From a virus, in the UHGV virus genome UHGV-1653291: DNA of 16,838 nucleotides. One strand, written 5' to 3'. This document shows, piece after piece, positions 3,001 through 6,000 of this stretch. Numbering within the stretch: the stretch's first letter is position 1; each line of letters begins with the position of its first letter. Position numbers: made by a program.

Positions 3001-6000
3001 TAAGCGTATTGTTATTCAGGAGCAGATGGAGAATGTATGGCGTCAGAGGAAGACGGCCAGAGAGATAAAGGCAAAACAGAAAGCAGCGGAGAGAGCTGCG
3101 CGTCTTGTTCGGGAAAAGGGAGAGGCCGAACTTCGTCATCAAATCACCAGAGAGGTTAGTCAGGAATTTGCTGATGGCATGTATCCTGGTGCTGACCTTG
3201 CATATTTACGATCCCTCGTTGAGCAGCGTTATAACAGGTTAAGAAAGACCTGGAAATCACTCCAACATTAACCCACCTGAATGATGAATCCGGTTTTACC
3301 GGAGGATTATCTACGTCGCAATAAAATATCTGTTCAAAAAACAATCTAAATTAATTTTCTCTAAACCTGAACACAGCAAAAATATCGCCTTTACAGGCAT
3401 CGGCTAATAAAGTTATCCACAGTTCTGATATGTATATGCAAATGGTTTTTTATAATAGATGCACTAAACAAATAAATGCAAAATCACTTTCTTTTATTAA
3501 GACTTTCTTTATTTAACTTACACAGGCTTTGCCTGTGAATATGTTCGCCCTTGCAGCGAGCTAAAGCTCGCGCCGGTTCGAGTCGCTACGCTCAAATATA
3601 CCTCCTCCGGCACTTGCCGGAGGCATGGAGCAGCCTGATCATCCTTTTCGAAACGGCACGTTTCGAACTATACAAAATCAATTTATATAAGGCCGAAATA
3701 AGGCCTACGGCCGGGCTTTGCAGGAGGAAGGGGCGAGCCTTATCAATAAACGTCGATAAATACGCACACAGTAGCCATCAGAACGCGATAAAATGTAAGA
3801 AACATCATTTCCTATTAGACATAGAAAACTTGTCTTATACGCAATGTAGTAAATTTCTATTGCCACATAGGAAAAGATTTCCTACCATCGTAGATATAAT
3901 AAATGGAGATGGTTATGGATAAAGATACTGTTTTAAAAATGTTGAATCCGGCTTGTTTAAAAAAAGCGGATGAATGGGAATCTCCTACATGTGGAGAAGT
4001 TCGGGCAGTCATTGGCCTGACCGGAATGAGCGGCTCGCAGTTAGCCAAAAAACTAGGCTTAAAAGATAGTCGCAATGTTCGCAACTGGCAGATGTTAAAG
4101 GAGTCCACATCCAGATCCAGCATTCCGTATGCAGCCTGGGCGCTGCTGTGTTACTTCGCTGGGTTAGGGTTAATCTTCATTGATAACAAAACAGATGTTT
4201 GAAACATGCAAATATGAGGTTTGTTATGGAACTTGTACGCAAAACACGCAAAGAGTTCTTGGACCTGTATCGCATGGGAGCTTTCACTTGTGTTGTGGCT
4301 ACCCAGGACGAAGTGACAAAAAGCTGGCGGCTTTTTGCTCTCAATAAAAAAGGGATTGCCGTTTTCATTGAAAAAGCCCGTGGTGGTATCCGCGAATGGG
4401 CGGGATTGAATTATGTGGCTGATTTTTGCGCAGCTATGGGGATTCGTCGCTGGGAAGTCCATATGCCAGGAGTAAAGTCACAAAAATAGGGCTTTCGCGT
4501 CGAAAATGAGGCGAAACTGAAAACGAGATTTCATTAACAAATAAGCAACATAAAAAACGGTGGAAAACGCCCAGGAAAACATGATCTTTTGAGCGGATTT
4601 TTTAGATCCGACAATGAACGGTGATCCGGTGGTGCCGATAACGTCCATTATGTTAAATGGCCCCGTTTTTCTTGAAATTATAACCCACAGGTTATATAGT
4701 TAGTGATATAAACTACAGGTTATAGGATTGAGCATGTGGACGGTACTTTTTAGCCAGCGATTTGACGACTGGCTAAATGAGCAAGAAGACGCTCTTCAGG
4801 AAAAGGTTTTGGCTGATTTGAAAAAGCTACAGGTTTACGGACCTGAGTTACCCAGGCCATATGCCGATACCGTAAAAGGTTCTCGGTACAAAAATATGAA
4901 AGAGCTTCGCGTTCAGTTTTCTGGCCGTCCGATAAGAGCCTTTTATGCGTTCGATCCGATTCGCCGGGCTATCGTTCTTTGTGCAGGAGACAAAAGTAAC
5001 GATAAGCGGTTTTATAAAAAACTGGTGCGTATAGCTGAGGATGAGTTTGCAGCACATCTGAACACACTGGAGAGCAAGTAATGAGAACATTAGATGAGGT
5101 GATTGCCAGCCGTTCACCGGAAAGCCAGGCGCGAATTAAAGAAATGGCAGATGAGATGATTCTTGAGGTCGGCTTGCAGATGATGCGTGAAGAACTCCAG
5201 TTATCACAAAAGCAGGTTGCTGAGGCGATGGGTATAAGCCAGCCAGCAGTAACAAAGCTGGAGCAGCGCGGAAATGATTTAAAGCTGGCGACATTAAAGC
5301 GTTACGTTGAAGCTATGGGAGGCAAATTAAGCCTGGATGTTGAGCTTCCCACAGGAAAACGAATAGCGTTTAACATCTGATCAGAACGAATGATAAGCCC
5401 CTGTTGCAAAGGGGCTTTTTTGTGCTCATGGAATTATATAATTATAGATTTATATAAAAAGTGCTTTACAGGTGGGAAAATATTTCCTAGTGTTATACCC
5501 GAAACCGAGCGATACCCGCCCTGGTTAAACCGGAGATAACCCGATGAAAGTACAAGACCGTGAAGTAGTAAAAAACCTCCTGCAATACCTGACCTCAAAA
5601 AACCTGACGGGCAGCGTTGAGTACCGTGAAGCGTTAAAACATTTCAACGTCACTACGGTTTATCGTTGGGAAAACAAACATTCTGAAAGACCGTATGTGG
5701 TGGATGTTTTTGCGCCTGATATTGAGTGCGGTTTTGAGCGCCATTCATTCAAAAAGAAACATTCCGCTGATGTTTTTTGTGAGGTTGTATGTGCGGCAGG
5801 AGATGATGAGTGATGCGTATTTCCTTCAAACGTGCGACTGAGCAGCAACGCAAAGAGTTCCTGGCTGATGATGTTGCGGCCGTTTATGACCTCATGAAAG
5901 AGGTTGTGGAATCAGGAAACTACACGGCGGCAAAGATGCTTAAACTGCAATTCTTGCTGGGCGACCTGAAATACAAATCCGAAGTTGTCGCCGGACGACG

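Follow-up and report, generated by a model that had tools for sequence, protein, structure and literature searches.

The locus

The virus genome UHGV-1653291 was analysed as one stretch of 16,838 nucleotides (nt), referred to here as the window. Between an origin-type region and an addiction module it carries two small open reading frames (ORFs), the first encoding a 95-amino-acid (aa) protein with a helix-turn-helix (HTH) of the XRE type and the second an 87-aa protein. The original prediction, made from the DNA alone, had placed two genes there, and this arrangement holds, with RepA upstream and HigBA downstream. The element is a phage-plasmid of Escherichia, about 48 kb in size: region 3400-5400 is 99.7% identical to the plasmid of E. 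coli ATCC 25922 (L078) and 98.9-99.2% identical to the Yersinia phages vB_YpM_39, 41 and 44. In RefSeq, the two products of the 99.7%-identical plasmid are listed as hypothetical proteins (WP_000356589.1 for the 95-aa product and WP_000424604.1 for the 87-aa product), and no description of either gene was found in the literature on this phage-plasmid family. The features of the locus are as follows.

3860-3888, + strand: promoter of the korC-like operon, from a promoter scan; -35 TTGCCA at 3860-3865, 17-nt spacer, -10 TACCAT at 3883-3888
3868-3884: candidate operator, a perfect 17-base-pair (bp) palindrome, TAGGAAA-AGA-TTTCCTA (TAGGAAAAGATTTCCTA)
3915-4202, + strand: korC-like gene, encoding a 95-aa XRE-type HTH putative repressor; ATG at 3915, Shine-Dalgarno (SD) sequence GGAG at 3905-3908
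4226-4489, + strand: gene for an 87-aa basic alpha/beta protein (isoelectric point 9.9); ATG at 4226, 23 nt past the korC-like stop, with its own SD sequence
2291-3271: IncFII-family RepA gene, upstream of both ORFs
between RepA and the korC-like gene: non-coding origin-type region
4734-5380: Gp49/HigB-type toxin and HTH antitoxin (HigBA), downstream of both ORFs

A KorC-family protein

What kind of protein is the 95-aa product? The XRE-like HTH noticed in the DNA sequence is borne out both by an AlphaFold model (mean pLDDT, the predicted local distance difference test, of 85), in which it is formed by helices 26-36, 40-46 and 53-60, followed by helices 72-81 and 85-88, and by homology to solved HTH proteins. 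A profile search of the PDB, started from close relatives, returned four distinct sequences at E <0.01, namely three constructs of AcrIF24 (best E 1.4e-7, through its C-terminal HTH domain) and Aca3 (E 2e-3); the comparison with Aca families covered those having solved structures. The top Foldseek match was likewise AcrIF24 (7dtr; 83 columns, 32% identity), then Aca1, HipB and C-proteins, all of them HTH repressors. Pfam, NCBIfam and PADLOC gave nothing useful for this protein. (The best NCBIfam match, "mobile mystery protein A" at E 1e-4, fell far under the family cut-off and was discarded.) A word-indexed homology search retrieved near relatives only, with 15 matches for the 95-aa protein and 12 for the 87-aa protein.

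A name for the protein comes from plasmids. KorC is a small HTH global regulator of the IncP-1 kil-kor regulon, known from RK2/RP4 and R751 (IncP-1) and from RA3 (IncU), and, like the protein described here, it is a single-domain HTH protein of 85-95 aa. In BLASTP, the 95-aa protein is 52% identical (E 5e-23) to WP_010890115.1, a "transcriptional repressor KorC" of an IncP plasmid, and the match spans a C-terminal motif present in both, IPYAAWALLC(Y/D)(F/Y)AGLGLI(F/W). P0015, also a 52%-identical homologue, fills the korC slot of an IncP-1-type backbone with the gene order ssb, trfA, klcA (Antirestrict), klcB, P0015, kleE, korA, incC, korB. By tblastn, homologues were found in 3,928 of the 72,556 plasmid records of PLSDB (about 5%), several of them annotated korC. 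The profile matches to AcrIF24 and Aca3, the fold model, the position of P0015, the PLSDB homologues and the match to an annotated KorC together lead us to assign the 95-aa protein to the KorC family, and we infer from its sequence that it would bind DNA, act as a repressor and dimerise. Among other phage-plasmids, orthologues are about 72% identical in L013 and L014, 88% in Citrobacter (L087, L088) and 62-69% in Enterobacter (L089, L090).

The hydrophobic C-terminal segment

The original prediction had read the end of the protein as a strongly hydrophobic helix that would tether the DNA-binding domain to the membrane, perhaps as a membrane-linked sensor. In its fullest form, this explanation makes the protein a tail-anchored HTH regulator or sensor whose residues 70-89 span the inner membrane. 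The hydrophobicity itself is real: the best 19-residue window within residues 70-89, starting from residue 70 or 71, has a Kyte-Doolittle mean of 1.77, which reaches the classical threshold, and the Wimley-White octanol sum (-9.8), the small-residue AGLGL motif and the place at the extreme C-terminus also speak for a tether. The single long helix, however, is not found. The AlphaFold model has no continuous hydrophobic helix of about 19-21 residues; the segment forms the two short helices 72-81 and 85-88, the fourth and fifth of the XRE-like fold, split at G83-L84-G85, and a simple Hessa-scale sum of +1.6 kcal/mol is borderline or unfavourable for membrane insertion.

The relatives also speak against an anchor. 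Residues 70-78 align with the C-terminal helix of AcrIF24, a soluble, crystallised protein (IPYAAWALL versus ISFAAWHYL), and this helix holds Y217, one residue of a double mutant, Y128K/Y217W, that disrupts the AcrIF24 dimer and abolishes DNA binding (PMC9638941). The aligned AcrIF24 stretch YLLDRLGVKR has a D and an R inside. Most of the KorC relatives aligned carry D or E within the segment (LLCDYAGLGLIW in R751-type KorC; ILVEYAGLGKIW, LLVHEAGLGWI, ILAECAGFGLIW and VLCIDAGLPPIW in others), unlike the protein described here. Uninterrupted hydrophobicity was seen only in the phage-plasmid clade, the IncP-1-like P0015, the Serratia copy and two IncI copies, so it is no family trait. Finally, no other part of the protein is as well conserved as this near-invariant segment, which would suit a core or dimer element and is unlike a membrane anchor. 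Because of this alignment, the helix break, the acidic residues and the conservation, a transmembrane anchor is not supported and must be considered very unlikely. The model and the homology would instead essentially place the segment of this first protein in the core of its fold, as the last two helices of a soluble domain, and it is probably a dimer interface. A membrane-tethered repressor was thus a false lead, which is hereby removed.

A likely operator in the promoter of the korC-like operon

The palindrome at 3868-3884 begins 2 nt past the -35, and its last two bases open the -10. This layout (-35/N2/palindrome/CCATC) is kept in L013, L014 and L087-L090. Five lineages of phage-plasmids have a perfect palindrome inside this promoter, flanked by its -35 and -10, even though their upstream DNA is otherwise divergent. 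In more distant members of the family, the geometry is kept and the inner bases of the half-sites are changed. Operator-like palindromes stand before the korC-like genes of a Serratia phage-plasmid (TAGGATAAAAAGTCCTA, L091), L016 (TAGGACGAAAAGTCCTA) and L015 (TAGGTTTAATTGACCTA), before klcA in L079 (TAGGGCATTATGCCCTA), and twice, before klcA and kleA, in L082, a plasmid with an annotated KorC (TAGGACATTTTGTCCTA). The acrIF23-acrIF24 promoter has TAGCTCGATTCGAGCTA between TTGCAT and TATAGT. AcrIF24 binds this sequence in electrophoretic mobility shift assays and represses the promoter in reporter assays (PMC9638941). The conserved footprint with its co-varying inner bases is the main argument that the 95-aa protein would bind the palindrome and repress its own promoter.

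Repeated ATTTCCTA(T/C) elements had been noted upstream of the two genes. Two exact copies do exist, at 3807 and 3877, but they are not part of an enrichment, since the whole window has 14 matches with one mismatch against 8.8 +/- 3.1 expected. The real signal behind these repeats is the inverted repeat TAGGAAAAGATTTCCTA at 3868-3884. As possible extra operators, the copy at 3807 and the everted half-sites (3808-3828, 3853-3873) were left as unproven, since the Citrobacter relative has not kept them.

A repeated promoter-leader cassette

A second copy of the operator lies further downstream, after the terminator of higA, within a cassette that is repeated in complete relatives of the element.

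5428-5545, + strand: promoter-leader cassette of about 120 bp; AT-rich upstream part, -35 TTTACA at 5465-5470, operator copy, -10 TAGTGT at 5488-5493, leader, SD sequence GGAGA
5473-5489: second operator copy, TGGGAAAATATTTCCTA, with 1 mismatch to the palindrome and in the same position relative to the -35
5544-5813, + strand: first cassette-driven gene, 89 aa, PHROG 6143 (no known function)

This operator copy is 55 nt before the ORF at 5544-5813, which heads a run of small ORFs without assigned function that extends to about 7183. Together with the site at 3868-3884, it makes two palindrome sites in the window. The ATCC 25922 plasmid has five matches at <=2 mismatches, compared with 0.19 expected (0 of 100 shuffles), and four of the five are intergenic and upstream of + strand genes: one is the korC-like operon's own promoter, and three are in copies of the cassette. 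There, the cassette consists of the AT-rich part, AAAGTGCTTTACAGG, the palindrome, a conserved leader, the SD sequence GGAGA and an ATG, and its three copies head three + strand operons. Copies are also present in L013, L087 and L088; each Citrobacter relative has three perfect sites, and L013 has two sites. Judged by this census of sites, several promoters, that of its own operon included, would be targets of the protein.

The cassette also resembles known KorC targets. It aligns, with the operator in register, to the klcA promoter and leader of an IncP-1-like plasmid (L079 8635-8757), in an alignment that runs through AAACCGGAGA-N5-6-GATG, and the leader block ACCGAGC is common to both. Its -35 context, AAAGTGCTT(T/G)ACAGG, is shared with the klcA and kleA promoters of IncP-1, which read AAAGTGCTTGACAGG (L082, about 660-770 and 2780-2890). 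By this homology, the predicted target promoters are of the KorC type as well. Unlike the IncP-1 klcA and kleA promoters compared, the cassette is without the KorA operator GTTTAGCTAAA. A small hairpin occupies the same position in the cassette leader as in the IncP-1-like leader, with another sequence (GCG...CGC versus GAGC...GCTC); since the leader RNA folds weakly (z -1.7), no structured RNA is claimed.

Could the protein instead regulate the replication or copy number of the adjacent IncFII-type origin? In the phage-plasmid lineages, the korC-like gene always comes directly after repA and the origin, and two reports on plasmid RA3 (PMC9455977, PMC7414963) describe control by KorC of a promoter that activates oriV. 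However, the palindrome census of the window found no operator copy in or upstream of repA (2078-3860), the korC-like promoter fires away from the origin, and the other operator copies head distant accessory operons, all of which makes a replication regulator highly improbable.

The cassette is also the site of a break in the window. Colinearity with the ATCC 25922 plasmid extends to the first copy of the cassette, after which the window resumes from the third, so that about 16.2 kb, including the genes for a CI-like repressor, an antirepressor, ParA, lysis and others, is missing at 5427-5547. The junction point falls inside the 120-bp repeat (window 5427-5547 versus L078 16206-16330, 25900-26019 and 32529-32650), and the contiguous junction was found in none of the 72,556 PLSDB plasmids. 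Either a rare deletion by recombination or a join made in assembly across the repeat would account for it. In these elements the cassette is also a hotspot of recombination, or a trap for assembly. The 32-kb pCREC-544_3 is a deletion derivative different from the window.

The 87-aa gene

The second gene starts 23 nt after the korC-like stop with an SD sequence of its own, which suggests that the two are co-transcribed. The description of its product as unrecognised still stands: Pfam, NCBIfam and PADLOC have no match, toxin families included, and PHROG 4595, which it does match, has no assigned function. The protein represents a rare orphan family. An exhaustive profile search gave 25 matches, with two long proteins that matched by several short repeated stretches set aside. 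Are the two genes partners? In the Escherichia and Citrobacter lineages, as in the distant Serratia phage-plasmid, the korC-like gene is followed by the 87-aa gene, which is missing from this place in three sister lineages (L013, L014 and L089/L090), where HigBA or HicAB comes directly next. On the other hand, the 87-aa gene is present in about 50 prophages and phages that have no korC-like gene in its vicinity. In Salmonella phage SPN3UB, for example, it lies next to dinI in the early/nin region, the region that it also occupies in a Klebsiella prophage, and in Buttiauxella and Scandinavium prophages it takes a moron-like slot between the tail and tail-fibre genes. Since each gene occurs without the other, the 87-aa gene would be an optional, mobile passenger, neither an obligate partner nor a classical toxin. 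This weakens the pair of the original prediction, of which the regulator holds, a protein with an XRE-like HTH and a likely operator in its promoter. The best guess for the 87-aa protein is an accessory role, either early or in establishment (anti-defence, or manipulation of the host).

The Serratia phage-plasmid (plasmid pJSRIV006_2, L091) has an unannotated korC-like ORF at 2131-2442, between repA and the origin on one side and the 87-aa homologue on the other. Identities are 32% for the korC-like ORF and 56% for the 87-aa homologue, and the operator comes after a -35 of TTGCTA. The next gene there belongs to a "TILxQLGGxRFxAMTGAK" family that also comes after the korC-like genes of L015 and L016. 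A likeness of the 87-aa protein to the small ORF before the korC-like gene in L016 (a shared G-I-(R/K)-E-(W/F) motif) was dismissed at an hhalign probability of 0.4%. In P0017, P0018, P0025 and P0030, the reading frame starts in a +1 ORF (MFETCKYEV...) and switches into the 87-aa frame, a region (window 4180-4347) that overlaps 4226-4489; these look like indel variants or sequencing errors in metagenome assemblies and do not count as evidence for a longer product.

A type II toxin-antitoxin pair, with the HTH protein as antitoxin and autorepressor and the 87-aa protein as toxin, would fit the gene layout: the HTH gene comes first, a small basic protein follows 23 nt downstream, and the promoter has an autoregulatory palindrome. 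Moreover, the KorC-controlled genes of IncP-1 were first defined as host-lethal "kil" determinants. Such a pair is nevertheless quite unlikely, considering that sister phage-plasmids keep the HTH gene alone and phages the 87-aa gene alone, that the 87-aa protein matches no toxin family, and that the operator is copied at other promoters, unlike that of a dedicated antitoxin.

An anti-CRISPR locus in the strict sense, with an Aca as its HTH protein and an Acr as its 87-aa protein, draws on other evidence. Among solved structures, those nearest to the 95-aa protein are Aca3, Aca1 and the Aca domain of AcrIF24; promoter and operator are arranged as in acrIF23-acrIF24; and in temperate phages, members of the 87-aa family are found at accessory places (nin, moron). 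However, an acr gene usually precedes its aca, and here the regulator gene is first. The solved structures in the PDB, which include many Acr proteins, gave no sequence match to the 87-aa protein, and its fold matches were generic. In function, the closest homologue is KorC, and the genes known as its cargo are klcA (anti-restriction) and kle, not acr. In one report (PMC13551039), Aca proteins are said to co-regulate several neighbouring anti-defence operons, as this explanation would have it; on balance, it is unlikely.

KorC, AcrIF24 and P1 C1

How close is the system to those already known? In addition to size, identity and C-terminal motif, it shares with KorC a 17-bp palindrome of the form TAGG...CCTA (TAGG-N9-CCTA) between -35 and -10, a predicted action at several promoters including that of its own operon, and target promoters whose -35 context and leader are homologous to those of klcA and kleA. 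The host element is different, being a non-conjugative phage-plasmid with an IncFII replicon, and it has no klcA, klcB or kle genes. No match to Antirestrict or Kle was found among the cassette-driven genes examined, which are small phage ORFs without assigned function and match PHROGs with no known function, DUF3560 and small HTH proteins. Here the inner half-site reads GAAA as opposed to GGCA or GACA, there is no KorA operator beside the -35, and the korC-like gene is the first of its own operon and has its own promoter. The protein is a phage-plasmid member of a repressor family that has long been known from IncP-1.

Elsewhere, korC-like HTH genes close operons with unlike cargo. In L085, an IncI-gamma/K1 plasmid, there are DUF4238-korC and DUF3800-korC operons at 1314-2734 and 3253-4690, and L084 (IncL, pOXA-48-like) has an operon of JAB domain, HTH and DGQHR domain genes at 1959-3106. 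In conjugative plasmids, the KorC-like family seems to serve generally as the terminal regulator of accessory operons.

The likeness to AcrIF24 concerns its HTH domain (the "body" or Aca domain). The operator there is also a 17-bp inverted repeat between -35 and -10, with the same outer TAG...CTA, and the protein is a dimeric repressor. A homologue of AcrIF24 in Pseudomonas phage vB_PaS_IME307 (L077 2542-3228) is 38% identical over 66 residues to the product of 3915-4202. In AcrIF24 (228 aa), however, the HTH module is fused to an anti-CRISPR part, which binds the Csy complex; here the module stands alone. The 95-aa protein would work like an Aca, but the associated acr gene that defines an Aca was not recognised beside it when the 87-aa neighbour was compared with PDB sequences and by fold search. 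As judged from sequence and operator geometry, the Aca/HTH domain of AcrIF24 is a homologue of the KorC family. None of the literature matches listed links KorC with Aca in its title or abstract, so this homology may have gone unremarked. It joins two bodies of work, on the KorC of the IncP-1 kil-kor regulon and on the Aca domain of AcrIF24.

In phage P1, one repressor, C1, acts on operator copies scattered over the plasmid-prophage at the heads of several operons. The dispersed operators described here recall this arrangement in layout. The complete relatives of the element have a CI-like/antirepressor module separate from the korC-like gene, and the 95-aa protein is therefore probably not the master switch of lysogeny.

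The rest of the window

The remaining genes of the window, in order, are as follows.

first in the window, before RepA: tail-fibre and tail-fibre-assembly genes
after HigBA: the run of small ORFs, then ParB-like, terminase, portal and protease genes

By blastn, positions 1-2078, the tail-fibre and tail-fibre-assembly region, have no match to the ATCC 25922 plasmid. The match sets in ~30 bp before the end of the invertase (recombinase) gene of that plasmid, which implies that the invertible tail-fibre segment and its invertase are arranged differently in the window or missing from it. At 2295-2408 on the minus strand there are sub-threshold Rfam matches to Thr_leader (31 bits) and CsrC (23 bits); the Rfam scan gave nothing beyond such matches in the repA leader. 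They mark a terminator-like RNA structure on the strand opposite the beginning of the repA ORF, which may be the CopA-type antisense RNA for copy control of the IncFII replicon. Between the AT-rich origin region and the korC-like promoter lies a G+C-rich block (3551-3760) with perfect hairpins at 3604-3623 and 3647-3667 and a duplicated ATAAGGCC.

A model for regulation, and what it means

The evidence makes it likely that the 95-aa protein is a KorC-type repressor of its own promoter and of the repeated cassette, and that the 87-aa gene is an optional passenger, not an obligate partner. Several points weigh against this interpretation. The structure of the 95-aa protein was predicted from 11 aligned sequences. 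The C-terminal segment of this lineage, with its Kyte-Doolittle mean of 1.77 over 19 residues, is unusually hydrophobic, and peripheral membrane association is possible. The palindrome could in principle be used by another HTH protein of the element. The -10 of the cassette, TAGTGT, is weak and was not called by the promoter scan, and the cassette genes are not homologues of klcA or kle, so this regulon contains other genes than the one of IncP-1. Recurrence of the korC-like/87-aa pair in the distant Serratia phage-plasmid leaves room for some functional link between the two genes.

How would such a repressor act? The protein would dimerise through its hydrophobic C-terminal helices, and the dimer would block RNA polymerase by binding TAGGAAA-N3-TTTCCTA, the palindrome that takes up the spacer from -35 to -10. 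Repression would take place at the promoter at 3860-3888 and at the cassette at 5428-5545 (in three copies in complete relatives), which heads operons of uncharacterised small genes. Since the repressor is encoded by the element itself, the cassette operons and the 87-aa gene should fire briefly in a naive cell: on entry into a cell free of repressor, there would be a short burst from the korC-like promoter and the cassettes, which would afterwards be kept down in the plasmid state. Being co-transcribed with the repressor gene, the 87-aa gene would share in this burst without being needed for repressor function.

Induction at entry followed by shut-off is what we infer by analogy with better-studied systems. 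KorC is described as a repressor of global reach that regulates itself as well (PMC11997246; for RA3 KorC, PMC7414963). The klcA gene of RP4, repressed by KorA and KorC, is near-silent at steady state and goes up about 120-220-fold in fresh transconjugants (PMC7314908). The same logic applies to Aca proteins, some of which, according to PMC13551039, are predicted to control several neighbouring anti-defence operons.

A further step is conceivable, though doubtful: the 87-aa protein and the cassette genes may form a new set of anti-defence or host-takeover functions, fired at entry under one KorC/Aca-type repressor, and the kil-kor circuit of plasmids and the Aca circuit of phages may be one ancient device. 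What the analysis provides more directly is a predicted function for a "hypothetical protein" of this phage-plasmid family with homologues in about 5% of PLSDB plasmids, and a concrete candidate regulon, made up of one 17-bp operator, one repeated cassette and several operons of uncharacterised small genes. If the regulated genes prove to be anti-defence genes expressed at the time of entry, the operator could serve as a guide to such genes in further plasmids and phage-plasmids.

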